DNA from: a virus
Virus record (IMG/VR): IMGVR_UViG_3300021077_000087
Span: 1-64,000 of that record
Strand: one strand, 5' to 3'
Length of the DNA stretch: 64,000 nt
Shown: positions 9,702 to 56,400 of the stretch, in pieces
How the letters are laid out: every line of letters begins with the position of its first letter
How positions within the stretch are numbered: the stretch's first letter is position 1
The notes under the pieces: model-generated
Databases searched by the model: none
Seen by the model: only the letters and a program-made list of their open reading frames with translations
Told to the model about the DNA's origin: nothing
Translations under genes and position numbers: made by a program

Positions 9702-10370
9702 TCAAATCTTTTTATTCCCATCATTAAAATAATCCTCATCTATTTCACAACCCCAAAAATCTAAACCTAAATCATAAGCTGCTATACGTGAACTTTGTGA
9801 TCCTAAATGAGAATCAAAAATCTTATCCCCTGGTTTAGCATAATTCTTTAATAACCATTTATAAAGTGCAATTGGTTTCTGTGTTGGATGAATTCTATTT
9901 TCTTTATGTTTCATATTTCCTTGAATCATACCGTTCCACGTGTATTTGAAAATACGAATAGGGGATTTAAAACTTGTCCATGCTAACTCACAATCACCAA
10001 AATTATTAGAACCATTATCTTTATCCCAAACAATCCAACAATTTGTAGGTTCTATGTTTTTTACCATATAATTTCCACCCCAAATAATTTGATTTTTAGA
10101 TACTCTAAACAACTCTTTAAAATATTCTGGTTTTGGAATCTCATTATCCCACTTTTTTAGAATGTAATTACTTTTTGCTGCAGCAGCTTTTCCAAATTGA
10201 GTTCCACTTTTTTTAGCTGCATCCTCGGCATACCCTATACCATATGGAGGATCAGGATACGCTAAATCAAAAAACTTATCAGGAAACTTTGACATATATT
10301 CCATATTATTTCCTAACCAAGTTTTGCTAATTGTTTTATTATTCATATCTACAAACATTTCCAGGTTCAT
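9702..10370 (-). CDS. DNA methyltransferase (N6-adenine / N4-cytosine type, beta class)
   Basis: Motif IV DPPYG near the N-terminus, then HPTQKP and the FxGxG-like FDSHLGSQSS near the C-terminus. The true start may be the internal Met at 10346. Confidence 0.8.
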   Translation of the reverse strand: MNLEMFVDMNNKTISKTWLGNNMEYMSKFPDKFFDLAYPDPPYGIGYAEDAAKKSGTQFGKAAAAKSNYILKKWDNEIPKPEYFKELFRVSKNQIIWGGNYMVKNIEPTNCWIVWDKDNGSNNFGDCELAWTSFKSPIRIFKYTWNGMIQGNMKHKENRIHPTQKPIALYKWLLKNYAKPGDKIFDSHLGSQSSRIAAYDLGLDFWGCEIDEDYFNDGNKKI

Positions 10371-20149: not shown

Positions 20150-20602
20150 TTAAATAATTCTAAAAGTTTTTGTTTCCATTACAGGCCACCAATATTTACC
20201 ATCGTTATATCCTTCATCTTCAGGGAATAACGGCAGATAAAAGTCCCGATCTTTTTCAATTAGTCTTGCTCGCATGGCTCTGTGAAATTCTTCATTTCCC
20301 AACCACCAAGGTGATTGATACCTACCATAGAAAATATATGGTTTATACTTTGTATGTATTCCGTGAATATTCGTACATTCCCATAAAAACTCATCAAAAT
20401 AAGATTTTAAAGCAGCTTCATAACCAACCCACATTTTAACTGCAGGGTGATTCATCCATGGTACTTTGTCTTTTGGACATTCTTCTAAATGAGATAAAAT
20501 AGATATGATTTGTTTGGCTTCAACTACCTGTTTCCAACATCGCTTCTTATCTAAAATATCTGCTGATTTTATAAAATCAGCATATGGTAGAAATGTTTGC
20601 AT
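20150..20602 (-). CDS. Pyrimidine-dimer DNA glycosylase-like protein (DenV / Pyr_excise family)
   Basis: The N-terminus MQTFLPYADFIKSADILDKKR..KQ..E..QI, followed by W.NHPAVKMW, matches the family pattern as I remember it. Confidence 0.5.
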   Translation of the reverse strand: MQTFLPYADFIKSADILDKKRCWKQVVEAKQIISILSHLEECPKDKVPWMNHPAVKMWVGYEAALKSYFDEFLWECTNIHGIHTKYKPYIFYGRYQSPWWLGNEEFHRAMRARLIEKDRDFYLPLFPEDEGYNDGKYWWPVMETKTFRII

Positions 20603-35204: not shown

Positions 35205-35660
35205 ATGAGTAACACAGTTAAATTAAAAAATTATTCCGATGTCTTTGAGGAGTATAAAGCTGATGCAGCAATTATGCCAGGACATCTGATTGAATTGCTT
35301 GCTACAAATAAAGTGGCACCCCATGGACCTGCTGACGTGAATGCACTTCCAATGTTTGCAGTTGAAGATGAATTGCAAGGTAGGGGGATTGATGATGTAT
35401 ATGCTAAAGGAGATCAGGTACAATGCTGGATTCCTGGACGTGGAGATATTGTCAATGCTATTTTAAAAGATGGTGAAAATGTTGGAATCGGTGATTTTCT
35501 TACAAGTGCCGGAGACGGAACTTTGAAACAAACTGATTTTGCTTCCAGTGCCACTGAACCTGGTTTGGCAGTTATTGGAATTGCTGTGAAGGCAGTTGAT
35601 ATGAGTGGTTCATCCAGTCTTGATCCGGTTGGTGGACGAGTTGCTGTAAGAATTATTTAA
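35205..35660 (+). CDS. Putative head decoration or auxiliary capsid protein
   Basis: 151 aa, immediately upstream of the major capsid gene. It has a strong SD site. Confidence 0.4.
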   Translation: MSNTVKLKNYSDVFEEYKADAAIMPGHLIELLATNKVAPHGPADVNALPMFAVEDELQGRGIDDVYAKGDQVQCWIPGRGDIVNAILKDGENVGIGDFLTSAGDGTLKQTDFASSATEPGLAVIGIAVKAVDMSGSSSLDPVGGRVAVRII

Positions 35661-35688: not shown

Positions 35689-36792
35689 ATGAATACTCAA
35701 GTTGATTTATTTGGAGCAAATGGTCAAGCATTTGGAGATGTCGCTAATGAAATTATATCAAATGGCCAGTTAAATATCGGTGCTTTGAGACCTTTCATTG
35801 GTGATGATGGTCGTGCTTATATGACCGTGTATCAAGGTGGTGCACCCACTGCTAAAACCAGTTGGAAAACAATGTCCATTAATACCAACGCAACTTTGCG
35901 TAGGGATGAGTGGAAACAATTGGATACTGCATTGCTTGAAGTTGGTCGTCAACGTCTTGGAGGAATTCAAGATTTGATTGACAAAGGACTTACTTTCAAT
36001 CTTGGCAATGCAATGGGCACTACTGTTCTGGAATGGCATGATGTCAGTGATGCTATGGAAGCAGTTGTCACTATGGATGGGGTAACCCGTTCTTTTGGTG
36101 ACAAGGTTATTTTCCAACACAACTATTTGCCTATCCCGATAGTCCACAGTGACTATGAAATCAATGCCCGTACATTAGCAGCAAGTCGATCTTTGGGAAA
36201 TCCATTGGATACAATCTCTGCTGAAAGAGCAGGTCGTGCTGTTCTCCAAAAATTGGAGGATATGTTGTTTACCAACACTACGTATTCCTTTGGTGAAAAA
36301 GATTCAAGGAGCAGGAATTCAATTTACAGTTACATCAACCATCCCGACAGAAATCAAGTAACACTTGATGTTGCTTGGAATGAATCAGGAAAAACTCCGG
36401 CAGGAATTTTGGCCGATGTTATGGAAATGAAAGCAGCTTCACTTGCTGGATTCCATTATGGTCCATGGATGTTGTATATTCCTACTGCATATGAAGGTAT
36501 CTTGGATGAAGATTATGCTATTGCAGGAGGTTCTGTGATGACTATCCGTGAACGTGTTTTGAAACTTGCAGGCATTCAGGCAATCAAAGTCATTGACACA
36601 TTGCCAGCTGACAACGTTGTTCTTGCACAAATGACCAGTGATGTAGTTCGTTTGGTTCGTGGACTTGATGTACAAAATGTTGAGTGGACTGTTGAAGGAA
36701 AATTCATCACGAAGTACAAAGTATTGGCTATTCAAGTGCCACAAATTCGTTCTGACCAGAACGGAAATTCCGGTATTGTGCATCTTGCATAA
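35689..36792 (+). CDS. Major capsid protein (HK97-fold, encapsulin / DUF2184-like)
   Basis: 367 aa, in the position after the scaffold and decoration genes. It has a strong SD site and a sequence pattern typical of this capsid family. Confidence 0.75.
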   Translation: MNTQVDLFGANGQAFGDVANEIISNGQLNIGALRPFIGDDGRAYMTVYQGGAPTAKTSWKTMSINTNATLRRDEWKQLDTALLEVGRQRLGGIQDLIDKGLTFNLGNAMGTTVLEWHDVSDAMEAVVTMDGVTRSFGDKVIFQHNYLPIPIVHSDYEINARTLAASRSLGNPLDTISAERAGRAVLQKLEDMLFTNTTYSFGEKDSRSRNSIYSYINHPDRNQVTLDVAWNESGKTPAGILADVMEMKAASLAGFHYGPWMLYIPTAYEGILDEDYAIAGGSVMTIRERVLKLAGIQAIKVIDTLPADNVVLAQMTSDVVRLVRGLDVQNVEWTVEGKFITKYKVLAIQVPQIRSDQNGNSGIVHLA

Positions 36793-36853: not shown

Positions 36854-37276
36854 ATGAAAAATAAAGAAGAAGAAGTTATAAAAAGAACCACTAAACCAAA
36901 AGCTGCAGAACATGCAACTGAAGTAACTCCTGTTGAAGAAACCAGATTGCGTTGGAAAAAAATCGGTGGGGGTTCTTTACGTATAACTCTTGGAGGAAAA
37001 AAGAAAATCATTAAACCAGGTGAAGTATTTTTAGCACATGAATCAGAATTGCCGGTAGCATTTATGGATAGCCTGCAATGCCTTGCATCGGAAACAGAAA
37101 AGAAAATAAACAAGGAAATTGTTGCCAAGCAAAATGCCGTTCCTGCAATTTATGAATTGCTGGAAGCCGAAGGTACTGACGATCTTTGGAATGTAGTGAA
37201 TCCGGAAGGAAAAGCAATCAATGAAGAACCTCTGGATATTGATGCAGCAAATGAGTTGCTGAATTCATTGAGTTAA
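36854..37276 (+). CDS. Hypothetical protein
   Basis: 140-aa ORF between the capsid gene and the glyco-island. Confidence 0.45.
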   Translation: MKNKEEEVIKRTTKPKAAEHATEVTPVEETRLRWKKIGGGSLRITLGGKKKIIKPGEVFLAHESELPVAFMDSLQCLASETEKKINKEIVAKQNAVPAIYELLEAEGTDDLWNVVNPEGKAINEEPLDIDAANELLNSLS

Positions 37277-37289
37277 AATAATCCACATC

Positions 37290-38066
37290 ATGAAAGTTGG
37301 TATTTGTGCAATAATAAAAGATTGTAAACCATCATATCTTAACGAATGGTTGGAATGGCACCGACTGATTGGTGTGGATTGTTTTTTTATTTATGACAAT
37401 GATTCAAAAATACCGATAAAAAACATTATTCAAGATTTAAAGAATATCAGTATTATTCCTATACATGGAGAAATGCAACAAAGTATTGCTTATACTGATT
37501 GCATTAAAAAACAACAACAAGTAAAAGATTGTGATTGGATTGCTTTTATTGATGATGATGAATTTCTTGTATTTGATTGTGGTAATATCAAAACATTTTT
37601 ACAAAATCAAAAAAATTCAGGAGTTTGTTTGAATTGGATTCTTTTTGGTGCTTCTAAATCAGGTTCGGAAAATCAATCACAAATAGCAAAATACACAAGA
37701 TGTCTCCCAGTAACAGCAAAAGTAAATCTTCATGTAAAAAGTATTGTAAATGTACAAAAAACGGAATCATTTAATCACCCACATATAGCTAAATACAAAG
37801 AAGGATTTGCTGTTGATGTTTTTGGAAATGAAGTAAATACTCCTTTTGTTGAAAATGCAGTTCATTCAATAGCTTGGATCAATCATTATTATTGTAGAAG
37901 TTTGGAGGAGTTTCGAGAAAAAAACAAAAGGGGGAGAGCCGATTTATCAAAGGAAATGATGCCAAATTCATATCCTGATACAACTTTTACAATCTATGAC
38001 TCTCAGGCAACTGAAAATACAACAAAAATACAACAAATACTGGCAAAATTAAAGTGTAGAGTATGA
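37290..38066 (+). CDS. Glycosyltransferase (GT92 / Glyco_tranf_2_4-like)
   Basis: YLNEWLEWHRLIGVDCFFIYDNDS...WIAFIDDDEFL, which is the characteristic EW..H...G.d.f.iYDN and DxDEF pattern. Confidence 0.7.
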   Translation: MKVGICAIIKDCKPSYLNEWLEWHRLIGVDCFFIYDNDSKIPIKNIIQDLKNISIIPIHGEMQQSIAYTDCIKKQQQVKDCDWIAFIDDDEFLVFDCGNIKTFLQNQKNSGVCLNWILFGASKSGSENQSQIAKYTRCLPVTAKVNLHVKSIVNVQKTESFNHPHIAKYKEGFAVDVFGNEVNTPFVENAVHSIAWINHYYCRSLEEFREKNKRGRADLSKEMMPNSYPDTTFTIYDSQATENTTKIQQILAKLKCRV

Positions 38067-38752
38067 TATGGACAGTACCAAAAATATGGAATGGAGGAAC
38101 AGCAATAATAATAGGCGGCGGACCATCAATTTTAAAGCAATTTAATGTTCCTCAATCTATTATTCAAGGTGTATATACTAAAAAATTATCACCAGAAGCG
38201 TATTCCCCATATTTATCAGCGATTCATAAACAACATATTATTTCTGTAAATGTCGCATATAGAATTGGACCATGGATTGATGTAGTATTTTTTGGAGATA
38301 AAAGTACATGGGATGAAGAAAAGGTAAATTTAAGAAATTTTAAAGGATTAAAAGTTTCTTGCGCAACTGGATGTGGTTTAGAAAATGAAGCATCGGTAAA
38401 ATGGTTGAGACGTGATCCGAGAAGAAAAGTGGGAATTTCTGATAATCCAAGTTTAATATCTTGGAATCGAAATTCCGGTAGTGCAGCAATAAATTTAGCT
38501 GTGCATTTTGGTGCTAAAAGAATTATTTTGTTAGGTTTTGATATGCAATTAGATGCTAATAACAATCAACATTGGCATAAAATGTATGCAAGTCCTTTAA
38601 AAACAGTTCAATTTACAATGGGGAAACATTTGATGGGATTCCCGCAAATGAAAGCAGATTTGGATAAAATGCATATTGAAGTGTTAAATGCAAATCCGGA
38701 TAGTAAAATAACTTCATTTAGAAAACTGAATTTCAAGGATATTCGATTATGA
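38063..38752 (+). CDS. MAF_flag10 / DUF115-like putative glycosyltransferase
   Basis: IIIGGGPSI...GSAAINLAVHFGAKRIILLGFDM resembles the Maf / MptE-like fold pattern. Confidence 0.45.
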   Translation: MIWTVPKIWNGGTAIIIGGGPSILKQFNVPQSIIQGVYTKKLSPEAYSPYLSAIHKQHIISVNVAYRIGPWIDVVFFGDKSTWDEEKVNLRNFKGLKVSCATGCGLENEASVKWLRRDPRRKVGISDNPSLISWNRNSGSAAINLAVHFGAKRIILLGFDMQLDANNNQHWHKMYASPLKTVQFTMGKHLMGFPQMKADLDKMHIEVLNANPDSKITSFRKLNFKDIRL

Positions 38753-41580
38753 GCAAGCCAGATGTAAAAAGACCACGTACAATTTACAAAAAAGTACAAG
38801 ATGGTTTAATGTGGTTTGAAAATCGACATATTACTTTAGGCACTATTTTTATGGCATATCCTGAAAAAATAGAAGCTTGTCATAAAAAGTTTTTACAAGT
38901 AGTTGGTATTGAAAATGTGGATACGATTGAAACTACAGGTCGTGGTTTTCATTTAACTTCATATAAAAAACGAGAAAACGAGATTCCAAAAGGCAAAGTA
39001 GGAATACAACGGGTAGGTTCAAAACCGAGAGAAAAAATAGTAATTGAATCACCAATAAGAGTTTTTCAAAAAATAGAAACAAAAAACAAAAATGAAAGAC
39101 CAGAGCCAAAGGCACAATTACTTCCAAATAAACCAGTAAAAACAGCAATTAATAGAAATACAGACCCAAAAGTAAATATTGAAAAAGTAAATATTGAAAG
39201 ACCTGATCCGAAAAATAAAACAGAAAGAAAGTTTACACCTGGAAGCGTTCCAAATAATAAAACAAGAGAAAATGTAAGAAGAATTCGAGTAAGAAATGAA
39301 ACTCCTGCAAATGAAAAACAACATGGACCGAATAGGGAGCTACACAGACCAATCAGAATACCAAAAATACGTGAAAAACAACAATTATATGACTTATATC
39401 GAACACCATATATTACAAAGGAAGAAGAACAAATTTATGTTGCGCGAGTAAGACAAAGAAGAGAAAAAAGAATAAGAGAAATAACAAATCCAACAGAGCA
39501 ATTAAATGCTGATCAAGTTTTAGAAGATAGATATTCATTAACTTTAAGGATAGAAGATATGGAAGTTTATGGTGTTTCCAAACATAGAATTCCACCAGAG
39601 AAACCACAGATAGGGAAAGAAGTAGGTATTGGTGTCATGGATAAACACGAAATACTTGCACAAATGCATCATTTATATAATCCAGAGATTTATTTTGAAA
39701 TCGGGGTTGATGCAGGAGTGAGTATTCGATTAGCTACAAGAACAGCAATCGGAGTTGATCCTAAACCGCATATAGGAGGTAATGTGAATGCAGCTGAGAT
39801 TCATGAAATGACGAGCGATGCCTTTTTTGAACAGAATTTACTTAAAGGAAGAAAACCCGATTTAGTATTTATTGATGGTTTACACACTTTTGATCAAGTA
39901 ATTCGTGACTTTAGAAATGTTGAGAGGAACGTAAAAGATACAACAATTATTGTTATTGATGATATTCTTCCAACGCATAATTTACAAACATCACGTGAAT
40001 GGAAAGAAGGAATGTGGACTGGTGATGTATGGAAATTTGTTCCTATTATTAAAAAATATAGACCGGATTTAACAATTACGATGCTGGATTCTTATCCAAC
40101 AGGATTGATGATTATTACTGGATTTGATCCTAACAATAATGTTCTTTGGGATAAGTATAATTTGATTGTGCGGGAATATATGAATGCTCCTGTGCCTGAT
40201 TATATCTATAAAAGAGAGAACATGGATTTGCGAAAAGATATTGATTTTGCTATTAGGAATTTGTTAAAAATACAAGGGGTTAAGATTCTTTGTTATGTCA
40301 ATCATTATTTTAACCCTAAACCAACAGGAGCTGATTTTGTGGGTGGTTGCACAGGAGAAGCAGAATACAGAAAAAATAACGTTAAAAAGTGTTTACAGGT
40401 TTTACGATCAATTAAAGGCTGTGATGTTAAAGTTTGTGGTATAAAAGAAAATTCTCTTGTTCCTATTGATATTGATTTCACTGGAATAAATCCACAACAC
40501 ATTCCTTATGCATCATTGAATTTAATGAGAACTAAAGCAGAACAATATGATTATGTTTTAAATATAGAGGATGATATTTTAATTAGTTCAAATGTTTTAT
40601 CAAATTGTATTGAGTTTGAAAAAACGGCTGAAAGTAATGAAATATTTCTTCCTAATCGTTTGGAACAAAGAGGTGATTCATGGGATTGTGTTGATCTTCG
40701 TTCTATGACTGGTTGGACAAAAAACAAAAAAAGATGGCATAATTTATTGCTTAGAGAAGCTGTAAATTGTCATTCAGGAATGTTGTTCATGGGAGCACAG
40801 AAATTTATAAAAGGCACAGCTTGCTTAGATACATCATTCAGAAAACAATTTCATGGTGGTTTTATGGCAAGTGCGTATGCCTATTTTCATTCGGCATTTA
40901 TTTTATACAGAAATCCTTATCCAAATAAATTTCATTCGGTTTGGCATTTGGATAAATGGATTCGTCCTGACGATAGAAAAAACAATAAAGAAGCAAAACT
41001 ACATCCAAGAATGATTATAAATTACTTTGAAACAAAAATACCTTATGGTTTGAATGGGGATATATCAGGAGCCTATAATATGGCGATGGCGGCTTCAAAT
41101 GCTGAATGGGTGTTATTACTTGATCAGGATATATTTCTTTGTAATCCATTTTGGTATCAAATTTGTCTTGATGCAATTAACACAACACCATTAAATACCG
41201 GATTGATTACTTGTATGTGTAATCCTTTACATGGTGCTGATAAACGAACATCAGAAGAAGCTCAACAAGCTGAGATTGAAATACGTTCTACAAATATTGA
41301 AGATCATATAAGAGTAGCAGAAAAACTGTATAATAAATACAAATCAACAGTGCAACCGGTAACAACATATAAGTTGGCTGGATATTTTATGTTAGTTAAA
41401 AAGAGTATTTGGGAAGCAGTTAAATTCCGATCAATTGGAACAGGTGTTCTGGGTACTGATTGGAATTATGGCAAAATGCTATTGTCTTATGGTTACAAAA
41501 TTTATAGAATGCCTGGTTTATATGTATATCATAGAAGAGGTTTACGTTCATTAAATTGGAAATTACAAAACGTATCATGA
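38749..41580 (+). CDS. Multidomain protein: basic low-complexity N-terminus, class I SAM methyltransferase, and GT2-like glycosyltransferase region(s)
   Basis: Residues about 60-300 are K/R/P/N-rich. FEIGVDAGVSI...VFIDGLHTFDQVIRDF is CmcI / Methyltransf_24-like. The C-terminal AEWVLLLDQDIF is a GT-A DxD motif. Confidence 0.6.
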   Translation: MSKPDVKRPRTIYKKVQDGLMWFENRHITLGTIFMAYPEKIEACHKKFLQVVGIENVDTIETTGRGFHLTSYKKRENEIPKGKVGIQRVGSKPREKIVIESPIRVFQKIETKNKNERPEPKAQLLPNKPVKTAINRNTDPKVNIEKVNIERPDPKNKTERKFTPGSVPNNKTRENVRRIRVRNETPANEKQHGPNRELHRPIRIPKIREKQQLYDLYRTPYITKEEEQIYVARVRQRREKRIREITNPTEQLNADQVLEDRYSLTLRIEDMEVYGVSKHRIPPEKPQIGKEVGIGVMDKHEILAQMHHLYNPEIYFEIGVDAGVSIRLATRTAIGVDPKPHIGGNVNAAEIHEMTSDAFFEQNLLKGRKPDLVFIDGLHTFDQVIRDFRNVERNVKDTTIIVIDDILPTHNLQTSREWKEGMWTGDVWKFVPIIKKYRPDLTITMLDSYPTGLMIITGFDPNNNVLWDKYNLIVREYMNAPVPDYIYKRENMDLRKDIDFAIRNLLKIQGVKILCYVNHYFNPKPTGADFVGGCTGEAEYRKNNVKKCLQVLRSIKGCDVKVCGIKENSLVPIDIDFTGINPQHIPYASLNLMRTKAEQYDYVLNIEDDILISSNVLSNCIEFEKTAESNEIFLPNRLEQRGDSWDCVDLRSMTGWTKNKKRWHNLLLREAVNCHSGMLFMGAQKFIKGTACLDTSFRKQFHGGFMASAYAYFHSAFILYRNPYPNKFHSVWHLDKWIRPDDRKNNKEAKLHPRMIINYFETKIPYGLNGDISGAYNMAMAASNAEWVLLLDQDIFLCNPFWYQICLDAINTTPLNTGLITCMCNPLHGADKRTSEEAQQAEIEIRSTNIEDHIRVAEKLYNKYKSTVQPVTTYKLAGYFMLVKKSIWEAVKFRSIGTGVLGTDWNYGKMLLSYGYKIYRMPGLYVYHRRGLRSLNWKLQNVS
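39169..39198 (+). repeat. Perfect 15-bp tandem duplication in the basic N-terminal region of the 943-aa enzyme
   Basis: aaagtaaatattgaa x2, encoding KVNIE-KVNIE. Confidence 0.9.
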
Positions 41581-42086
41581 TAAAATTTATGACACAAGCA
41601 GATCATGCTGCTTTAGAAAAACAAAATTCGTATTGGAAAGGTCGTTGGCCTTACTTGGAAAGAGTTATAGATATTGTACAACATGATGTGCAAATAACTT
41701 CTGCATCTGAAGTTCTTGAATTAGGTGCTTATGAGGGTTCTATAATTCCAGAATGTGATTTAATGGATAAAAATGGTAAAATCCCAAATTTGAAATATAA
41801 ATGGGATGCATCCGTTGTTCCGTGGCCTGTAGAAGATAAAAAATATACATTATTCATCGCTTTACAAGTATGGGAACATTTAAAGGATGCACAAAAGGAA
41901 GCATTCATTGAAGTGTTACGTATTTGTAAATATGCAATATTATCATTTCCATTAAATTGGGATTGTCCTGGAAATTGTCATCATGGGATAACAAAAGAGA
42001 TAATTGCTGAATGGACATTGTTTATTGAACCAGTTAAAGTGATCAAGGTGGGGGCAAGAATAATTTACTTTTATAAATTTATATAA
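41577..42086 (+). CDS. Putative SAM-dependent methyltransferase
   Basis: The start at 41577 forms an ATGA overlap with the upstream stop. VLELGAYEGS (motif I-like) and LQVWEHLKDAQKEAFIEVLR. Confidence 0.45.
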   Translation: MIKFMTQADHAALEKQNSYWKGRWPYLERVIDIVQHDVQITSASEVLELGAYEGSIIPECDLMDKNGKIPNLKYKWDASVVPWPVEDKKYTLFIALQVWEHLKDAQKEAFIEVLRICKYAILSFPLNWDCPGNCHHGITKEIIAEWTLFIEPVKVIKVGARIIYFYKFI

Positions 42087-42087
42087 C

Positions 42088-42786
42088 ATGATCGTATTAA
42101 TTACACCAACTGGAGGTCGTCCAAGACAATTTGAATTATGTTGTAATTGGATGCGTAAGCAAACCTATAAAGGAAAAGTATTTTGGATTGTTATTGATGA
42201 TTGTGTACCAATAACATCTGAGATCAAAGGTGTTTTTCCTTCAAATTGGACAATTGTAAAAAAATACCCTCGTCCAATTTGGCAAAATGGAATGAATACA
42301 CAAGGCCGTAATATGAAAGCGGGAATTGATGTAGTTAAATGTTTGCCAAAAAAGGATATAGAAGCAATATTTATCATTGAAGATGATGATTATTACAAAC
42401 CTATATATCTGGAAGAAATGATGAAAAGGATGAAAAACTTTACCATCATAGGAGAAACAAATACAATATATTATCATGTTGTTTCTAAAAGATATATTGT
42501 AAGTCATAATATGCAACATTCAAGTTTATTCCAAACGGCTTTTGCCGTAGATGCAATTCCTACACTTGAAACTTGTTATGCTGAAAAATATATTGATATA
42601 TTGTTGTTTAAAAAAAGTAATAATATTTGTTTGTTTAGTGCTAATAATTTATCAATCGGGATTAAAGGATTGCCAGGTCGTGCCGGAATTGGTGCTGGAC
42701 ATAATGCCAAATATAATCACAATCCTGATGCTAACTTATCAAAGTTGAAAGAATTAATTGGAGCAGATTATAGATATTACATATGA
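42088..42786 (+). CDS. Glycosyltransferase (GT-A fold)
   Basis: VLITPTGGRP...WIVIDDC...IIEDDDYY. Confidence 0.55.
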   Translation: MIVLITPTGGRPRQFELCCNWMRKQTYKGKVFWIVIDDCVPITSEIKGVFPSNWTIVKKYPRPIWQNGMNTQGRNMKAGIDVVKCLPKKDIEAIFIIEDDDYYKPIYLEEMMKRMKNFTIIGETNTIYYHVVSKRYIVSHNMQHSSLFQTAFAVDAIPTLETCYAEKYIDILLFKKSNNICLFSANNLSIGIKGLPGRAGIGAGHNAKYNHNPDANLSKLKELIGADYRYYI

Positions 42787-43439
42787 ACACAACAACATCA
42801 CATAGTCCAATTTTTGTAACCGGAATAGAGCGTTCTGGCAGTTCTATCGTGGCAAAAATTATAGCTGCTTGTGGTGTTTTTATCGGTGATGTTACACCTA
42901 TGCAAGAAAATACAGCAATAAAAATATTAATAGATAACTATTACAAATATCAATTACATATTCCTATAAATGGACAAAATCCATTACCGAATACAAGACG
43001 TTTGTCGGAGTTTTTAAATTTAGAGGTATCTATCTATACCTTACTAAGAGATCAGGGATACAATGAGCTACAATCGTGTTTGCTTAAGGGTTTTCGATTC
43101 GCTCAGACTTGGCCTATCTGGGATAAGACTTATCCAAATGCTAAATGGATAATTGTACGACGTAGAACTGGTGATATTATTCAAAGTTGTTTAAAAACTG
43201 GTTTTATGAATGCTTATTCGGATCAAATTGGTTGGTTAGGTTGGATTCATGAGCATGAAAAGTTATTTGTTGAAATGATTGAAAAAGGTCTTAATTGCAA
43301 AATAGTTTGGCCTGAAAGAATGGTTAATGGAGATTTTCAACAAATGCAAGAAACAATAGAATGGTTAGGGTTGCAATGGGATGATTCTATCAAAGAAAAA
43401 ATACAACCTTTGCTTAAAAATAGTACAAATAAAATATAA
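42783..43439 (+). CDS. Sulfotransferase
   Basis: 5'-PSB-like loop VTGIERSGSSIV and 3'-PB-like IIVRRRTGDIIQS. Confidence 0.6.
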   Translation: MNTTTSHSPIFVTGIERSGSSIVAKIIAACGVFIGDVTPMQENTAIKILIDNYYKYQLHIPINGQNPLPNTRRLSEFLNLEVSIYTLLRDQGYNELQSCLLKGFRFAQTWPIWDKTYPNAKWIIVRRRTGDIIQSCLKTGFMNAYSDQIGWLGWIHEHEKLFVEMIEKGLNCKIVWPERMVNGDFQQMQETIEWLGLQWDDSIKEKIQPLLKNSTNKI

Positions 43440-43445
43440 TATGCC

Positions 43446-43808
43446 ATGGAACCAAGAGTAACAGCAAATGAAGTTCGTGAAATTATGGATGACACTGATT
43501 TGACAAATACCAACATAGATTCATTTATAAGTGGTGCTAATGCACTAATGAATACTCTTTTTGGTAATTCAACATTGCCTCTTCACAAAGAAGTTGAACG
43601 ATGGTTAACCGCACATCTTATTGCTTGTACGAGAGAGCGACAAGCATTGAAAGAGGAAGCAGGGTCTGCTAAAATAACATATACAGGTGTATATGAAAAA
43701 GGCTTATCCATGACGTCATACGGACAAATGGCAATGACATTAGATACATCTGGTAAATTAATGCTTTTGATGTTACGTAGGGCAAGTACATATGCTGTTA
43801 AAAGCTAA
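43446..43808 (+). CDS. Putative head-tail connector / adaptor
   Basis: 120 aa, the first gene of the connector cluster. The call is from position. Confidence 0.4.
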   Translation: MEPRVTANEVREIMDDTDLTNTNIDSFISGANALMNTLFGNSTLPLHKEVERWLTAHLIACTRERQALKEEAGSAKITYTGVYEKGLSMTSYGQMAMTLDTSGKLMLLMLRRASTYAVKS

Positions 43809-43813
43809 AACAA

Positions 43814-44260
43814 ATGAGCATACTAAATTTCATAAAAAAGATATGTGTTCAACCTGCAGTATATTGGGGAAATCCAGTAGATGATGGTTTTGGAAACAAA
43901 ATGTTTGATCAACCTATTGAAATAAAAGTTCGATGGGATGATGTACAACGTATAATCACAGCTTTGAATGGAAAAGAAATTGTATCGAAAGCAACTATTT
44001 TATCACCACTGGATTTGGATATTGAAGGGTACATTTATTTAGGAACATTAGACAGTTTAATTGAATATGATGAATCTGGTGATTCTGATGACTCATCAGA
44101 CTATTCATCGGATTCTGATGAATCTGGGTATATTGGAACAATAAAACATCCAAAAGAAATTGATGGTGCATATGAAATCATTGCACCGAGCAAAACACCA
44201 TTAATAAAATCAAATACTAAGTTTGTTAAAGAATACATATTAGGATTTAGAAACGTGTAA
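43814..44260 (+). CDS. Putative head-tail joining protein with a Ser/Asp-rich insert
   Basis: 148 aa. Contains DESGDSDDSSDYSSDSDESGY. Confidence 0.35.
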   Translation: MSILNFIKKICVQPAVYWGNPVDDGFGNKMFDQPIEIKVRWDDVQRIITALNGKEIVSKATILSPLDLDIEGYIYLGTLDSLIEYDESGDSDDSSDYSSDSDESGYIGTIKHPKEIDGAYEIIAPSKTPLIKSNTKFVKEYILGFRNV

Positions 44261-45120: not shown

Positions 45121-45576
45121 ATGAGTTCACAAGCGATTAGTGGTGTTGGAACAGAATTTCATCGGTGGAACGGATCACATTGGGATGCCATTGCTGAAAT
45201 CACTGCCATCAAAGGGCCTGGTCCGAAAAGGGAACAAATTGAAGTTACCTCATTGGACTCAATCGGTGGATATAAGGAGTTTATTGCTGGCTTCCGAGAA
45301 GCTGGTAGCATAACTCTTTCAATGAATTTCCGCCGTGATAATTATGATTTGATGTTATTGGATTTCGAGAGTAATGATTTGCAAAATTATGAAATCATTC
45401 TTGGTGATGATCTTATGACGTCATTTGAATTTACAGGGTTGGTCACAGAATTGCCATTGAATATTACTGCAAAAGATGCAGTGACGATGGATGTAACAAT
45501 TCTCATCAGCGGACAAATTATAGTCGATTCTGGAGCAGATTCAGGATTGTCTTCATTCATGTCCGGTGCTTCCTAA
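45121..45576 (+). CDS. Major tail (tube) protein
   Basis: 151 aa, directly upstream of the chaperone pair and the tape measure gene. Confidence 0.55.
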   Translation: MSSQAISGVGTEFHRWNGSHWDAIAEITAIKGPGPKREQIEVTSLDSIGGYKEFIAGFREAGSITLSMNFRRDNYDLMLLDFESNDLQNYEIILGDDLMTSFEFTGLVTELPLNITAKDAVTMDVTILISGQIIVDSGADSGLSSFMSGAS

Positions 45577-49817: not shown

Positions 49818-52349
49818 ATGAGTTACGCAAATTTATATACAATTCCCTTTACTGGTCGGTTAGGAATCGAAGGATATATCTATATTGATCAATTAGATTA
49901 TCAAGGTATTCCTGACCCTACTATGTTAAGAATGGAATTTGATTCTTTACAAATAACCTATTCTTTTGGAGATTGGGGTAATCCGGTAATTCCTTTGCAG
50001 TGTGAATTTAATTTATTAAATGATAAAGAAGATTTTTTTGAATTACTTCCTTTAATTTCGGCTCAGGAAAGACAATTTAAAGTGCGTGTTGTTTTGCAAA
50101 AACCGGAAGTTATTAATTTATTTGATGGCTTTTTAAATAGTGAGGCTATGTCTCAAAAATATTTAAAAAGACAATTCATAAAATTTGTTTCCAGTAATTA
50201 CTTAGCAAAATTAGAAGATAATTATCCAGACAGTATTGATATTTTACAAACGAAAACTTTTATTGATATTATTGATGAAATATTAACTTCCAACGGATCG
50301 TCTTTCAATATACGAATCAATAGTAAACTTCATGCCGAAGGAGATATATTACAAATCGGACAAACTCTTTTTAACAAAAACGGATTTTACACGGAAGTAT
50401 TTTGGGATGATTTAGTAAATAGGAAATATAGTTTGGATATTCTTAAAGATATTTTAACTTCCTTTGATTGTTATATTTATTGGCAAGATGGGTATTGGTA
50501 CATTGAAAGATATGAAGATTTATGGTCGGAAAATGGTACTTATGTAGAGTATGTTACAGGAAGCAAATATTCTCCATCTGATTCAGGAAATGCCATAGCT
50601 TTTACAAAAAGTATAGAACCCGTTCATTTTCATAAGTTCACTAAAAAAGGTTTGTTATTCACAGAACAAACTCAAACAATAGGAACAGATCCTGGTTACA
50701 AAACCATTAAAATTATTTTAGATGACAAACGGTTTTTAAATTTAATTCGAGCACACTTTGATGATGTTTCGTTGGCTACAATCTTTCCACCAGAACCTCC
50801 GTTAAGGACATGGTTAAAATATCAGATACCGGCTCGAATAACATGGAATATTTGGAGTCCTTATTCTACAATTCAAGATACTTTCAGACGATTGATTTAT
50901 CCTGATTTTGGAGAATATATTGATAATTACAAAGGTTTATATACTTCCTTTATAGTTTCCGTGCAAAATACTAAAACCCAACTTAATATCAAATTTAAGT
51001 ATGGCATAGAAAAAAGAACGGATGGTGATTCATGGGATAATTGGTCTTTTAATTTTTATTGGTATTTAAGAGTTGCTAACACTACAGATTATATTTTCAA
51101 AGTAGGTGATACAGAGGATTGGTTGAAACAACCTGGTGCGAATGAAAACGAGCATTTACAAACTATTTCCGTAAGTGGCTCCACATTAGACAAAGATTCT
51201 AATGTAATGGAAGTTTCTGTTTCCATTCCTATTGGTTTAGTTAGCAACTATGTATTAGGTTTGGATGTAGGAACTTTGAATGGAGATATTCCTTTAGTTT
51301 TCTGTTTAGGCACAGAAAACGTTACCAAAGATACTGAAGAAGATCAGGTTTGGGAAGCTTTTATTGGAGATTTTGAAATTACTTCTACCGGAGAAGTTCA
51401 ACCTAATGTTATTGAAGGAAAAGTAAATTCTAATTATCTTAACAAAAAAGACATTTCTTTGATTCTATATGATTGTGATTCGGCTAATTATAAAAATAGT
51501 ATTTTAAGAGGAGATTCTTTGAATATTCGCACTTTACGATGGGGAACAGATGGAGGCGTATCTTTAATCAATTCCAGAGGAGTTTGCTGGGCTATACATC
51601 ATACCCCAACCATAAATGATAGCAAAACCATAGATGGTACTGGTTTTGGAGTTTTTGAAAGTAAAATGACTGGTTTATCTGAAGGAACAACTTATTATGT
51701 TCGAGCCTATGCTATTGATGGGGATGGTGCTGTTTTTTATGGAGAAGAAGAAACTTTTACAACCATAGATATGACTATCGGAAGTGCTTATGAAGGGGGT
51801 AAAATAGCATATATCTACCAACCTGGAGATAATGGTTATGTAGAAGGAGAATTTCATGGTATTATCTGTGCCTTATCCGATGCTAAAACTCCAGATGGAG
51901 ATAGAGATTTTTGGTGTAGTCTTTCTAATGGAATGGGTTACTCATGTGGAGCATGGGATACAGAAATAAACAAAGGTAAGGACAATTCTACAAAAATGGA
52001 TGACCATCCTTGGATAACTCAATTTGCTATTAAAGAATGTATAGGTTGTTCTTATGCTGGTTATACGGATTGGGTTTTGCCGAGTATTGATGAACTTATT
52101 AAATTGAGAGATAGTCGGGGTATTTTAGGTGGTTTTTCTAATGGTTGGTATTGGTCAAGTACGGAATTTTCTAAAGATCAAAATCCCCCTAAAAATGTAT
52201 TAATAGAATTTTGGTTAGCTTTTAAAGTAATATTTGGAAGTTCTGCTTGGAAGTATGCTTGGGGATTAGATTTTAGTTCAGGTAGTAGTGCGGCAGAAAC
52301 TTACAAAAAAAATAATTGGATGAGGATTCGTCCTATAAGATATTTTTAA
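49818..52349 (+). CDS. Tail tip / distal tail protein with an Ig-like domain and a C-terminal DUF1566 (C-type-lectin-like) domain
   Basis: Position after the tape measure gene. GYTDWVLPSIDELIKL and WYWSSTE are DUF1566-type motifs. The Ig-like module is ...TTYYVRAYAIDGDGAVFYGEE. Confidence 0.6.
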   Translation: MSYANLYTIPFTGRLGIEGYIYIDQLDYQGIPDPTMLRMEFDSLQITYSFGDWGNPVIPLQCEFNLLNDKEDFFELLPLISAQERQFKVRVVLQKPEVINLFDGFLNSEAMSQKYLKRQFIKFVSSNYLAKLEDNYPDSIDILQTKTFIDIIDEILTSNGSSFNIRINSKLHAEGDILQIGQTLFNKNGFYTEVFWDDLVNRKYSLDILKDILTSFDCYIYWQDGYWYIERYEDLWSENGTYVEYVTGSKYSPSDSGNAIAFTKSIEPVHFHKFTKKGLLFTEQTQTIGTDPGYKTIKIILDDKRFLNLIRAHFDDVSLATIFPPEPPLRTWLKYQIPARITWNIWSPYSTIQDTFRRLIYPDFGEYIDNYKGLYTSFIVSVQNTKTQLNIKFKYGIEKRTDGDSWDNWSFNFYWYLRVANTTDYIFKVGDTEDWLKQPGANENEHLQTISVSGSTLDKDSNVMEVSVSIPIGLVSNYVLGLDVGTLNGDIPLVFCLGTENVTKDTEEDQVWEAFIGDFEITSTGEVQPNVIEGKVNSNYLNKKDISLILYDCDSANYKNSILRGDSLNIRTLRWGTDGGVSLINSRGVCWAIHHTPTINDSKTIDGTGFGVFESKMTGLSEGTTYYVRAYAIDGDGAVFYGEEETFTTIDMTIGSAYEGGKIAYIYQPGDNGYVEGEFHGIICALSDAKTPDGDRDFWCSLSNGMGYSCGAWDTEINKGKDNSTKMDDHPWITQFAIKECIGCSYAGYTDWVLPSIDELIKLRDSRGILGGFSNGWYWSSTEFSKDQNPPKNVLIEFWLAFKVIFGSSAWKYAWGLDFSSGSSAAETYKKNNWMRIRPIRYF

Positions 52350-53443: not shown

Positions 53444-56400
53444 ATGAAAAAACTAATGTTTTTCTTATTTTGGTTCATCCCTTTATTATCTTTGGGACAA
53501 TTTCCAAAACCGACAGGAGCAATACCCATTCCTAATTTTTCATTTTTTAAAACCCCCTCAGATAGTTCTATAACTATTTATTTGGGAAAAATTGATGGTT
53601 ACAATACACTTTTATCCAAATTTGATACCACAGGGAATAAAGGATATTATACAAATTATAAAGCTACTAAAGCAGGTTCCATAGGAGGTTCTGGAATAAA
53701 AAATTATATTCCTAAATTTACGGGAACTAATTCTATTGGTAAATCACTATTGTACAATAGTGATGCTGGAATTAGTATAGGAGATACTTCACCACCACAT
53801 TATTTGCTCACTTTACAATCTACTGCTGAAACAGAAAAATCAGATACAACAAGAGTTGGACCTGAATTGCTTACTGCATTAGGTTGGGACATAGGTGTTG
53901 GTTATGGTTGGACTGGTAATTATAACGATGGTTTTAATTATATTAATATAGGACAATCCATAAGAGGTTGTGTAAATACAGAATTTCAACCTACTATCGG
54001 TGAAACATATAAAGTATCTTTAACCATAAGTAATTATTCGGGATCAGGATATTGTTTAGTTAATTTAGGTTCTAATATAAGTTCAACACAATTCAAAGGA
54101 AATCAAACTCTTTCAACAACTATTACAGCTTTATCTAATGTATGGTACTTCGCTATAATTCCACAAACAACATTTGTAGGAACAATTGCACAAATATCTA
54201 TAAAACGAGTAGAATCATATGAACCTACTTTTGCTATTAAAGATCATGAAGGAACTCCTAATTTTGAAATTCGTTCTTCAATTGATTCATTACATAATAC
54301 TTTTATAGGAAAAGAAGTCGGAAAACAGAATACTTCAGGTTATAATAATACTGCTATTGGTTATCAAGCATTAAAATATAATAAAACTGGTTTTTGGAAT
54401 ACGGCTGTTGGTTGGCAAGCCTTGTTTAAAGGTTCTTCAAATTCATATGGTAATCTTGCCATAGGTCCTCAAGCATTACTTAATAATAATGCAGCTTTTA
54501 ATCTTGCCATAGGTCCACAAGCAATGCTTAATAATATTAATGGTGTTTCAAATATAGCAATAGGTAGTTTAGCTCTTGGTGGAAATATGTCCGGATATGG
54601 GAATACAGTGGTTGGTTATAGTGCTTTGCTTTACAATGTTATATTTCCATATAATACAGTGTTGGGATATATGGCCGGTAATTACTTAGCAAATGGCATG
54701 GATGCTAATCGAGTATCACAAAAAAGCATATATATTGGAGCGAATACACGAAGCGGTATGGCTTATACATATGATTATGACACTACTCATGATTCTTATG
54801 AAATTGTAATAGGTAATGATGCAATAGGACATGGAAATAATACTGCTACGCTTGGAAATGATTCTATTAAACATACGTATTTGAGGGGAGTTAATTTAGC
54901 ACCAATGACTCTTGTCGTAAGTCCTTTGTCTGGTAACCTTGAAAATGATGGTGATTCTATTTATTATACAAATTCATCCAATATCCGAAAAGCATTAGGA
55001 TCATCTGGTGGAAGTATTGATTTGTCTGCATATAAACAGAAAAATGACTCTATTACAAATCCTGGGTATTTTACAAATTATAAGGCTTTGAGTTACAAAC
55101 AAAAGTCAGATTCAATTGTAAATGCTGGATATGCAACTAACTACAAATTATTATCATATAAACAAAAATCGGATTCAATAATTAATGCAGGATATGCTAC
55201 AAATTATAAATTGCTTTCTTATAAGCAAAAGAATGATTCTATTACAAATCCTGGATATGCATCAAATTATAAGTTAAGTTTTAAGGTCGATAAAGTTGCT
55301 GGACAAGGATTAATACGAACAACTGCAAAAGATTCAATTACTACTGCTGAACAACACAATGATACTATTAGAAATGCTGGGCATGCAACTATTTATGATA
55401 TTAGTTCAAAAGTAGACAATACTGCTTTTGCTGCTACTGAAAGAACAGTAAGAAGGGATTCTACAAATTGGAATACAGCATATACTCATAGAATTACAAC
55501 TTTAACCACAAATGGTTCTTCGGGAAACGCTACATTATCACATGATACTTTAAATGTGCCAAGTTACACAGGAGGAACTTCATTGAATGGAACAGGTTTT
55601 GTAAAGGCGTCTGGTACAAATATAACTTATGATAATTCTACGTATAATTCTGGATCGGGAACCACTAATTATCTTACAAAATTTACTGGAACAAATACTT
55701 TAGGAAATTCGTTGATGTATGATAATGGTACAGGCATAGGGATAGGAACAAATACTCCTTCATATCTATTAACCACTCAATCTACAGTAGCTTTAGAAGA
55801 AGCTGCTGTAGGAACAGAATTATTAACTACTTCTGGTTGGACTACAACAGGTTGGACGGGAACAGATCCTTCGGTAGGCTTTACTCATACTGCAGGAAAT
55901 ACAAATAATCTTTCAAATACATTAACTTCTACAGCTTCTACTGATTATAAATTAGTTACAACTATTACTAATTGCACTACTGGTAATATTCAAGCAAATT
56001 TTGCTGGACAAGGTTTTAGTTTGTATTCTTCAAATGGAACATATTATGAAGGAATTATAAATGCTTATTCTACAAGTACATTTTATATATCTCCTTCAAG
56101 TAATTTTAATGGTACTGTAGTGATGTCTCTTAAGAAATGTAATGGGTCTGGGACTAATCCTGTTTATGTTAATCAGAATCATTCGGGTATTTCTAATTTT
56201 GAGATTCGATCTTCTCCAGCCGTTTACCCTCAAACAACTAATGGTATAGGAAATTGGAATAATGTATATATTGGAAAAAATGCTGGAAAAAATAATGTTC
56301 TTGGATGGGGAAATGTGGCTATCGGAGAAGAAGCTTTAAAATCAAACGATGTTGGTTATCTTAACATAGCTATTGGTCCACAGGCTTCTCAATTAAATAT

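Follow-up and report, generated by a model that had tools for sequence, protein, structure and literature searches.

Six co-oriented open reading frames (ORFs) on the + strand span positions 37290-43439 of IMG/VR virus record IMGVR_UViG_3300021077_000087, whose first 64,000 nucleotides were analysed and are referred to here as the window. They lie between the gene for the major capsid protein (MCP) and a DUF4054 adaptor gene, in the late module of a tailed phage. Two of them, ORF2, which encodes a Maf-like enzyme, and ORF6, which encodes a sulfotransferase of the type that uses 3′-phosphoadenosine-5′-phosphosulfate (PAPS), form a frame around lineage-specific genes, called cargo here, and this frame is a conserved core of a large uncultivated siphovirus clade, which has no cultured member and is represented by 800-1200 protein clusters and, in IMG/VR, by at least 500 contigs. 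The cassette is probably a virion-modification system, in which virion proteins would be glycosylated in the cytoplasm and sulfated as well. Its product, a variable and possibly sulfated sugar coat that most likely decorates the virus particle, has not been described for any bacterial virus. To our knowledge, phage virions have generally been treated as unmodified protein shells, the sole well-studied exception being a handful of mycobacteriophages. The six ORFs and the two genes that bound them are as follows.

35689..36792, + strand: MCP gene, the upstream boundary of the cassette (PF19774/DUF6260, 1.8e-17; PHROG 771, 6e-21)
37290-38066, + strand: ORF1, 258 aa, GT92 / Glyco_tranf_2_4-type glycosyltransferase (Pfam), just upstream of the conserved frame
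38063-38752, + strand: ORF2, 229 aa, Maf/DUF115 (MptE-like) enzyme with a sialyltransferase fold, the conserved 5′ frame gene (PHROG 4603, 8e-35)
38749-41580, + strand: ORF3, 943 aa, a fusion whose parts are listed below
41556 (TTG) or 41589 (ATG) to 42086, + strand: ORF4, 176 or 165 aa, small class I S-adenosylmethionine (SAM) methyltransferase-like protein; gene callers use the ATG start
42088-42786, + strand: ORF5, 232 aa, GT2-family (GT-A) glycosyltransferase, on family-level evidence
42783-43439, + strand: ORF6, 218 aa, PAPS-type sulfotransferase, the conserved 3′ frame gene (PF13469 Sulfotransfer_3, 1.9e-8, 35.3 bits, above the cutoff of 27)
43446-43808, + strand: DUF4054-type head-tail adaptor gene, the downstream boundary (PF13262, 4.3e-4, 20.9 bits, below the cutoff of 23.9; PHROG 302)

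A first-pass annotation, made from the letters alone, had described six consecutive, co-oriented and mostly overlap-coupled genes between the capsid and connector genes, and all six lie where it had placed them. Its domain identifications were also essentially right when examined by profile searches and structural models, some of them through family-level evidence only. Three of the junctions are 4-bp overlaps and another is a 1-nt spacer, while the stop codon of ORF6 falls 6 nt before the adaptor gene. Internal promoters and terminators were considered and rejected; since promoter-like and terminator-like sites are no more numerous than in shuffled sequence, nothing points to a separate transcription unit. 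None of the six proteins has a transmembrane segment. The arrangement is not due to chance, because it recurs in more than 100 related contigs.

Two sets of relatives, identified by L numbers where necessary, were compared. A search of IMG/VR with the capsid protein gave 18 related loci, and a search with an alignment of the Maf-like protein gave at least 506 stretches, the best 80 of which were analysed. In 13 of the 18 capsid-related loci both the Maf-like gene and the sulfotransferase gene lie between the MCP gene and the adaptor; one locus has the Maf-like gene only, and three more distant loci of a single lineage have neither frame gene. The minimal form, found in L004-L007, consists of the capsid gene, a small ORF, the Maf-like gene, the sulfotransferase and the adaptor. 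Among the best 80 stretches, the MCP gene is found within 2.5 kb upstream of the Maf-like gene in all 72 evaluable loci, and of 51 loci evaluable for the sulfotransferase, 50 have it in the interval from the Maf-like gene to the adaptor. The distance from the end of the Maf-like gene to the start of the sulfotransferase ranges from 566 to 8938 bp, with a median of 3.2 kb, and the median distance from the end of the sulfotransferase match to the start of the adaptor is about 18 bp. Over the clade, the variable cargo between the frame genes amounts to 0-9 kb. Six phage contigs from metagenome-assembled genomes (MAGs) in GTDB have the same organization: the sulfotransferase is directly upstream of the adaptor in all six, and the Maf-like gene follows the MCP gene in five.

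The identities of the two frame proteins to those of the window co-vary with capsid identity (rho 0.46 for the Maf-like protein and 0.35 for the sulfotransferase) about as well as those of the tail tube protein (0.42) and the adaptor (0.26). In their behaviour the two genes resemble core genes of the head module that are inherited vertically. The locus is not a six-gene island as first described; all six genes are present, but the architecture is that of a conserved two-gene frame around lineage-specific cargo. In the window, ORF3, ORF4 and ORF5 are inside the frame and ORF1 is just upstream of the Maf-like gene; none of these four has a BLAST-level homologue in the first 10 relatives compared.

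The Maf-like protein ORF2 has at least 1200 homologues in metagenomes. Its own match to PF01973 (MptE-like; 4.6e-6, 27.0 bits) falls below the gathering cutoff of 34.6 bits, and precomputed matches to this family are present on many of its close homologues. The best PDB match of the AlphaFold2 model, which has a predicted local distance difference test (pLDDT) score of 95, is the Maf glycosyltransferase of Magnetospirillum magneticum (5MU5), with an E-value of 2e-5 and a query-normalized TM-score (TMq) of 0.62, followed by CstII, MptE HPPK, ST8SiaIII and ST6GALNAC2. The sialyltransferase-like fold of the Maf central domain, a variant of GT-A, is present in the model. A GGG-x-S loop, an LxGxDM motif and H172 are invariant in the family, the last of these within a QHWH motif that is 90-100% conserved. 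Maf-family enzymes glycosylate flagellin directly on Ser or Thr residues, and ORF2 is, judging from its predicted fold, a candidate protein-directed glycosyltransferase.

The sulfotransferase ORF6 has 811 homologues, and PF13469 is matched by nearly all of the 120 listed. In an alignment of 50 sequences, G14, R17, S18, G19, K102, R126, R127 and S135 are invariant. Both PAPS-binding motifs, the 5′-phosphosulfate-binding (5′-PSB) P-loop (GxxRSGS/T) and the 3′-phosphate-binding (3′-PB) motif (R...S), are present and align with those of the tyrosylprotein sulfotransferases (TPSTs). The AlphaFold2 model (pLDDT 91.5) has a sulfotransferase fold, for which the top 13 matches in a Foldseek search of the PDB are TPST1, TPST2 or the tick TPST (TMq 0.58-0.64, E about 1e-5), with carbohydrate and small-molecule sulfotransferases scoring below them. 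The family profile matches only TPSTs in the PDB at E < 0.01, and the alignment extends over the full length of the domain, with the PAPS loops and a Lys equivalent to K158 of TPST. Equivalents of the TPST catalytic Arg and Lys are conserved in the family, while the TPST catalytic Glu aligns to a non-conserved position; the invariant E42 is five residues downstream of it. The C-terminal Ser region of TPST is absent from ORF6. Since TPSTs are closest in both predicted fold and sequence profile, the acceptor could be a protein rather than a sugar. Given the caveats attached to Pfam family membership, to the C-terminal region and to the Glu, the sulfate acceptor may be either a glycan or a tyrosine.

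Searches with tblastn against 50,697 deposited phage records gave no match for ORF6 or for two extra sulfotransferases encoded by a relative, L001. A structure search revealed annotated, unstudied sulfotransferases in a few phages (Synechococcus phage S-SCSM1 and Xanthomonas phage FoX4), and no annotated phage sulfotransferase has been described in a virion-modification role. The nearest bacterial homologues, at 29-30% identity, occur in two settings (L032 5082-8663 and L033 7464-9521). On a Pseudomonadales MAG chromosome, the homologue is clustered with two Sulfotransfer_2 genes next to a haem peroxidase of the animal type, and in a Thiobacillus MAG it is part of a fusion of tetratricopeptide repeats (TPR), Sulfotransfer_3 and Sulfotransfer_1.

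The cargo was surveyed with 150 representatives from 55 loci. The most frequent Pfam families are GT2 (20 representatives), NAD-epimerase/dehydratase (14), GT11 (12), the GDP-mannose dehydratase family (12), Methyltransf_24 (11) and FkbM (8); Gly_transf_sug, Caps_synth, GT47-like and TcdA/B-type glycosyltransferases are found as well, and six representatives match the NCBIfam model for GDP-fucose synthase. Individual loci have their own combinations. L002 encodes GT11, GT10-like, GT47-like, FkbM and GT2 proteins, whereas L001 encodes a fusion of a Maf-like protein with Methyltransf_24, the two extra sulfotransferases, another methyltransferase and proteins that are weakly GT8-like. In L001, an APS kinase gene (8671-9093; PF01583, 6.6e-16) directly follows the conserved sulfotransferase and precedes the adaptor gene. 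Since this phage, with its three sulfotransferases, supplies a step of the PAPS pathway of its own, genuine sulfation is supported. In L067, a PseB-like gene occurs together with a CapG/FnlC-like 2-epimerase (1e-89), a combination that points to synthesis of N-acetyl-L-fucosamine (L-FucNAc). At least in L067, the matches of cargo genes to 'PseB' are accordingly attributed to an L-FucNAc pathway and not to a nonulosonate pathway.

All 263 cargo ORFs have fewer than four hydrophobic segments, that is, none encodes a polytopic membrane protein, and a flippase, polymerase, ligase or polyprenyl-phosphate transferase is therefore absent among them. Cargo that consists only of soluble enzymes favours the sequential glycosylation of a soluble acceptor in the cytoplasm and disfavours the assembly of an exported polysaccharide.

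The four lineage-specific enzymes of the window differ in how widely they recur. ORF1 matches both PF13704 Glyco_tranf_2_4 (1.8e-15, 57.6 bits, cutoff 27.5) and PF01697 GT92 (6.5e-14, 52.6 bits, cutoff 23). A homologue is present in only one of the 80 relatives (L038), and its tblastn matches among deposited phages are confined to huge metagenome-assembled genomes, those of the Prevotella Lak phages and of one uncultured 595-kb phage. ORF3 recurs in two of the 80 relatives and consists of the following parts.

38749..39618, + strand: residues 1-290, basic low-complexity N-terminal arm, read from the translation, with no family match
39697..39966, + strand: residues 317-406, Methyltransf_24 (CmcI-like SAM methyltransferase) domain (PF13578, 2.8e-10, 41.4 bits against a cutoff of 26.3)
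40189..41028, + strand: residues ~481-760 (~280 aa), middle domain with an EDD motif, with no family match
41041..41538, + strand: residues 765-930, GT2-like glycosyltransferase domain (PHROG 14179, 2.6e-13; PHROG 26101, 2.3e-12)

The fusion had been read from the sequence as a basic arm, a CmcI-like methyltransferase and one or more GT-A domains. The arm, the methyltransferase and the C-terminal GT2-like domain are borne out, but the middle domain has no match in Pfam, PHROG or PDB sequences and no relatives in IMG/VR; it may have a GT-A fold. The C-terminal domain matches Glyco_tranf_2_5 of the Pfam GT2 clan only below the cutoff (2.8e-4, 21.1 bits, cutoff 27). The Methyltransf_24 domain is the one that is fused to the Maf-like protein in L001 and counted 11 times in the cargo survey.

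Neither ORF4 nor ORF5 has a direct Pfam match of its own, and both were assigned through their families. The ORF4 family has 570 representatives at 50% identity; 27 of 47 members match Methyltransf_11 (best 1.9e-6) and nine match Methyltransf_25. Its invariant residues are E44 and G46, in a segment resembling motif I, together with E96 and H97. Matches to methyltransferases in the PDB are weak, and ORF4 does not recur in the 80 further relatives. ORF5 has 755 homologues, several of which, at 52-59% identity, carry PF00535 or a GT2 name. Residues D37 and D38 (DD) and E98, D99, D100 and D101 (EDDD) are invariant in its family, and the family profile has weak PDB matches to the GT-A enzymes GlcAT-S and KfiA (0.26 and 0.39). 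ORF5 recurs in 17 of the 80 relatives and has no tblastn match in any of the 50,697 deposited phage records.

The gene content, the folds, the conserved synteny, the variability of the cargo and the absence of membrane or export components are observations; what we infer is that virion proteins are the acceptors, along with the sequence of steps, the identity of the donor sugars and the acceptor of the sulfate. In the scheme we favour, modelled on the action of Maf on flagellin, the Maf-like enzyme would attach a first sugar directly to Ser or Thr residues of one or more virion proteins in the cytoplasm, late in infection. The transferases of the cargo would then extend and methylate the glycan, and sulfate would be placed by the sulfotransferase either on the glycan or on the protein itself. 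The window phage would draw nucleotide sugars, SAM and PAPS from its host, while some relatives carry GDP-fucose, L-FucNAc or APS-kinase genes of their own. The outcome would be a glycan coat, negatively charged and particular to each lineage, that has diversified in the manner of O-antigens.

Several segments of the structural proteins were compared as possible acceptor sites, and two were retained as candidates.

44060..44149, + strand: hypervariable acidic, Ser/Thr-rich loop, residues 83-112 of the 148-aa connector protein (43814-44260), a candidate modification site
45514..45573, + strand: Ser/Gly-rich C-terminal tail of the tail tube protein, a candidate O-glycosylation site

The connector loop varies in length from 4 to 33 aa among 61 homologues, and that of the window, DESGDSDDSSDYSSDSDESGY, is among the longest. 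Ser and Thr make up 28% of the loop residues and 12% elsewhere, and Asp and Glu 27% and 13%. Tyr occurs in 17 of the 61 loops, and no Tyr residues of the structural module other than those in the loop of the window are strongly flanked by acidic residues. This Ser/Asp-rich insert had been put forward as a candidate target at the outset. It is still a candidate site, but it is an extreme form of a hypervariable loop and was rejected as a conserved core target. In every relative examined, the tail tube protein ends in a short, variable Ser/Thr/Gly-rich tail after a conserved 'ISG' strand, and a variable segment rich in Ser is present in the decoration-like protein. Acid-flanked Tyr residues are well conserved at just two positions, Y276 of the capsid protein and Y66 of the decoration-like protein. 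Capsid Y276 (36514-36516), in an LD(E/D)DY motif (LDEDY at 36502-36516), is 98% conserved and is followed by a variable Ser/Thr/Gly-rich stretch. Since this motif is also found in relatives without the sulfotransferase, it is probably structural. Y66 was rejected as a specific target, as its motif is also present in L014 and L015, two relatives without the sulfotransferase.

That virion proteins are the substrates had been suggested from gene position and presumed late expression. The suggestion is strengthened by the strict synteny with the head module, by the solubility of all the enzymes and by the resemblance of the two core enzymes to protein modifiers, although the support is circumstantial. 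A number of observations weigh against it. Accessory genes are often inserted in the gap that follows a capsid gene, so the position of the cassette alone is weak evidence. ORF2 lacks the N-terminal and C-terminal domains of the flagellin-modifying Maf proteins, its alignment to 5MU5 is confined to the middle of the 632-aa chain (target-normalized TM-score, TMt, 0.25), and its fold is shared with the archaeal pyrophosphokinase MptE. Enzymes with a sialyltransferase fold usually use nonulosonates or Kdo activated with cytidine monophosphate (CMP) as donors, and no genes for the synthesis of CMP-nonulosonate or CMP-Kdo were found in the window; a nonulosonic-acid donor pathway was rejected, since NeuB/PseI, a CMP-synthetase and an aminotransferase are all absent among the large ORFs of the window. 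The tail tube tails and the decoration-protein loops do not discriminate, as their composition is similar in relatives without the cassette. Capsid Y276 was rejected as a sulfotransferase-specific target, being present in L014 and L085, which lack the sulfotransferase, and replaced by Phe in L011, which has it. When the connector loop, the tail tube tails, the decoration loops and the capsid Tyr were compared, no acceptor site correlated with the presence of the cassette.

In a variant of the favoured scheme, the sulfotransferase would act as a protein tyrosine sulfotransferase on Tyr residues of the virion, independently of any glycan, while the Maf-like enzyme and the cargo would separately glycosylate Ser or Thr. 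Such an activity would agree with the top ranking of TPSTs in both the fold search and the profile search, with the minimal relatives, in which the sulfotransferase works with the Maf-like enzyme alone, and with the connector loop of the window (DDSSDYSSDSDESGY), which resembles a classic acid-flanked TPST site. However, TPSTs are the sole Sulfotransfer_3 members among the solved-structure matches, so their ranking may reflect family membership instead of specificity. The lack of the TPST C-terminal region in the 218-aa ORF6 and the failure of the TPST catalytic Glu to align with the invariant E42 also speak against tyrosine sulfation, no Tyr is conserved specifically in the sulfotransferase-carrying phages, and the occurrence in L001 of three sulfotransferases and an APS kinase among glycan genes fits sulfation of a glycan. 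On balance, tyrosine sulfation is possible but doubtful. The same degree of doubt applies to the broader proposition that the clade, made up of environmental siphoviruses found across the globe, sulfates its own virion proteins with a TPST-related enzyme of the head module, beside a Maf-type O-glycosylation system with hypervariable, O-antigen-like cargo.

It is unlikely that the enzymes instead serve a target outside the virion late in infection, such as precursors of lipopolysaccharide (LPS) or capsule at the cytoplasmic face, host proteins or a soluble metabolite, with the post-capsid junction merely tolerating accessory genes. Genes for glycosyltransferases, methyltransferases and sugar-nucleotide synthesis are typical of polysaccharide loci, the bacterial sulfotransferase homologues are in sulfotransferase clusters or TPR fusions that have no link to phages, and no virion acceptor has been pinned down, all of which would suit a target of this kind. 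Yet the 263 cargo ORFs lack the flippase, polymerase, ligase and polyprenyl-phosphate transferase, and the frame genes remain fixed beside the structural genes, co-diverging with them, down to about 44% capsid identity. Expression coupled to the head and tail genes would be late, when little is to be gained by remodelling the surface of a cell that will soon lyse, and both frame enzymes resemble protein-modifying enzymes. Hypermodification of the phage DNA, by base glycosylation or methylation as protection against restriction, is a role in which phage glycosyltransferases and methyltransferases are well known (PMC12619734), and two weak PHROG matches on the methyltransferase domain of ORF3 are labelled 'DNA methyltransferase'. 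That domain, however, is of the Methyltransf_24 (CmcI/O-methyltransferase) type and not of a DNA methyltransferase family, the cassette is part of the head module and well away from the genes for replication and nucleotide metabolism, which are on the other strand, and fucosyltransferases, GDP-fucose and L-FucNAc synthesis, sulfotransferases and APS kinase have no known role in DNA modification. This explanation is highly improbable.

The genome in the window has about 33% G+C, with the replication module on the − strand and the late module on the + strand. Upstream of the cassette, the late genes encode, in order, the terminase, the portal, a Mu-F-like protein, a DUF2213-like protease or scaffold, a 151-aa decoration-like protein (35205-35660) and the DUF6260-type MCP; downstream are the DUF4054 adaptor, the connector, the tail terminator, a lambda-like tail tube protein (45121-45576), chaperones and the tape measure protein. 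No integrase or tRNA gene was seen. A DNA-level search of deposited phages found none close to this genome, which recurs in public assemblies on contigs 58.9 and 71.5 kb long; SRR13557794 is one of the samples in which contigs of the clade are present. Among isolates, phages of Croceibacter and Cellulophaga give the best terminase matches, at 36-39% identity. Assignment of a host through GTDB was rejected. The clade contigs are binned into MAGs of six unrelated lineages, one of them archaeal, and since they are clearly mis-binned, the MAG labels are uninformative on the host. The labels for L025-L030 are Paceibacterota, Hyphomicrobiales, Izemoplasma, Bacteroidales, Bathyarchaeia and Balneolales.

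One further small gene lies between the MCP gene and the cassette.

36854..37276, + strand: conserved 140-aa ORF, with no Pfam or PHROG match

Its homologues hold the same position in L001, L002, L003, L004, L007 and L008. In L015, which has neither the Maf-like gene nor the sulfotransferase, the MCP gene is followed by a small ORF with a Gly-rich motif whose translation looks similar on inspection by eye; a BLAST search with the 140-aa ORF gave no match in L015. If the two belong to the same family, the 140-aa ORF is not tied to the cassette.

Elsewhere in the window, the family-A DNA polymerase is split between two − strand ORFs (3320-4714 and 7400-8611) about 2.7 kb apart, one carrying uracil-DNA glycosylase (UDG)-like and 3′-5′ exonuclease domains and the other the polymerase domain; ThyX (6753-7403) and other ORFs are located between them. 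The phage also encodes a pyrimidine-dimer DNA glycosylase (20150-20602, − strand; PF03013, 3.1e-14) and an N6/N4 DNA methylase (9702-10370, − strand). A tail fibre protein of 1691 aa (53444-58519) has a Peptidase_S74 intramolecular chaperone domain at its C-terminal end, and an 843-aa protein upstream of it (49818-52349) ends in an Lcl_C-like domain.

In this clade, the cassette matches the structural genes in its degree of conservation, and it joins a Maf-like enzyme and a TPST-like sulfotransferase that had no earlier link to virions, with a turnover of cargo reminiscent of the way in which O-antigens diversify. Should the products coat the virion, a hidden, fast-evolving, negatively charged glycan layer would cover the surface of these phages, in effect a 'glycan serotype' of the particle. 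Such a layer could affect adsorption, the tendency of virions to stick to particles or mucus, resistance to proteases or grazing, and recognition by host defences, and it would bear on the engineering and detection of phage particles. If the clade does sulfate its virion proteins with the TPST-related enzyme, its virions would be the first among prokaryotic viruses known to be sulfated, and protein tyrosine sulfation encoded by such a virus would be seen for the first time.

Each of the two frame enzymes has a known counterpart. The Maf flagellin glycosyltransferases (PF01973, 5MU5) share MptE-like motifs (a GxGPS loop and LGxD) with ORF2 and are its best structural match; they are cytoplasmic enzymes that act on Ser or Thr of a protein bound for a large extracellular assembly. 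The sequence identity is only about 12%, however, and ORF2 corresponds to the catalytic core alone. In addition, the donors of Maf enzymes are CMP-pseudaminic or CMP-legionaminic acid, for which neither the window nor the cargo that was followed up showed a pathway. TPST1 and TPST2 (Sulfotransfer_3; 3AP2, 5WRJ, 8W5Z), the best matches of ORF6, share with it the 5′-PSB (GxxRSG), the 3′-PB (R...S) and the conserved Lys, but the identity is 17-21% and ORF6 is about 100 residues shorter. TPSTs are enzymes of the eukaryotic Golgi lumen.

Among phages, virion glycosylation is established for the mycobacteriophages Che8, Corndog and Myrna (PMC12363180), with glycans at the C-termini of capsid and tail tube subunits according to PMC12619734, which cites Freeman 2023. 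For soluble glycosyltransferases encoded by these phages, often accompanied by methyltransferases, a cytoplasmic action on virion proteins has been proposed or shown, which resembles the scheme favoured for the window clade, and the Ser/Thr/Gly-rich tail tube tails of the clade recall the C-terminal glycan sites. The first-pass annotation had placed the mycobacteriophage genes in the structural operon; this is not so in cluster F1 (Che8-like) phages, where they are near the 3′ end of the genome (PMC11256854). The two systems differ in other respects as well. The searches with ORF1 and ORF5 against the deposited phage records gave no actinobacteriophage match, neither a Maf-like enzyme nor a sulfotransferase has been reported in mycobacteriophages, and the fixed two-gene frame with hypervariable cargo is a feature of the window clade. 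Mycobacteriophage hosts are Actinobacteria, whereas the nearest cultured relatives of the window phage, by its terminase and at no more than the identity given above, infect Bacteroidota.

Homologues of ORF2 with 25-31% identity are present in several cultured phages, namely Pseudomonas D3/PMG1 (orf7), P1 (the PmgO/PmgP region), Caulobacter CcrColossus (gp126) and 'Tetraselmis viridis virus' S20, where they are annotated only as 'alpha-2,3-sialyltransferase' (PHROG 4603), PmgO/PmgP or hypothetical. In the D3-like PMG1 (L023 5813-6409 and 8575-9192), the Maf-like gene is located between the major head protein and the head-tail adaptor Ad1; PMG1 also has an annotated terminator downstream of the head gene and, within its group of head-tail joining genes, a methyltransferase gene. 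TvV-S20 (L115, NC_020840.1, 5271-8128), whose 39-kb Caudoviricetes genome was deposited as that of an algal virus, has two Maf-like genes, a glycosyltransferase and a methyltransferase directly after the terminase, portal, protease and head genes, and further glycosyltransferases are found downstream. In CcrColossus, a Maf-like gene, a nucleoside diphosphate (NDP)-sugar transferase, a methyltransferase and a GT9 gene follow a tail protein gene, and in P1 the Maf-like gene is in the 'pmg' (putative morphogenetic) cluster adjoining the tail and baseplate genes. The independent recurrence of Maf-like genes within or next to the structural genes of PMG1/D3, TvV-S20 and CcrColossus speaks for a role in virion modification. 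These phages have no sulfotransferase by tblastn and belong to other capsid lineages (HK97-like with a protease, myoviruses and jumbo phages). A literature search found no functional study of their Maf-like genes, nor any study of Maf-like or sialyltransferase-like genes in phage head modules or of virion (tyrosine) sulfation. The first-pass annotation knew of no described phage system that combines these activities; annotated phage sulfotransferase genes do exist. The Maf-like half of the hypothesis is testable in the cultured phages D3/PMG1, P1, CcrColossus and TvV-S20.

The organization of the locus resembles that of bacterial O-antigen and capsule loci, in which conserved flanks surround hypervariable genes for glycosyltransferases, sugar-nucleotide synthesis and tailoring. 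Fucosyltransferases, Gmd/Fcl, FnlA/CapG-like enzymes and methyltransferases are common to both. The clade cargo differs in having no Wzx/Wzy, ABC transporter, initiating phosphoglycosyl transferase or polytopic membrane protein of any kind, and the clade locus sits inside the head module of a phage.

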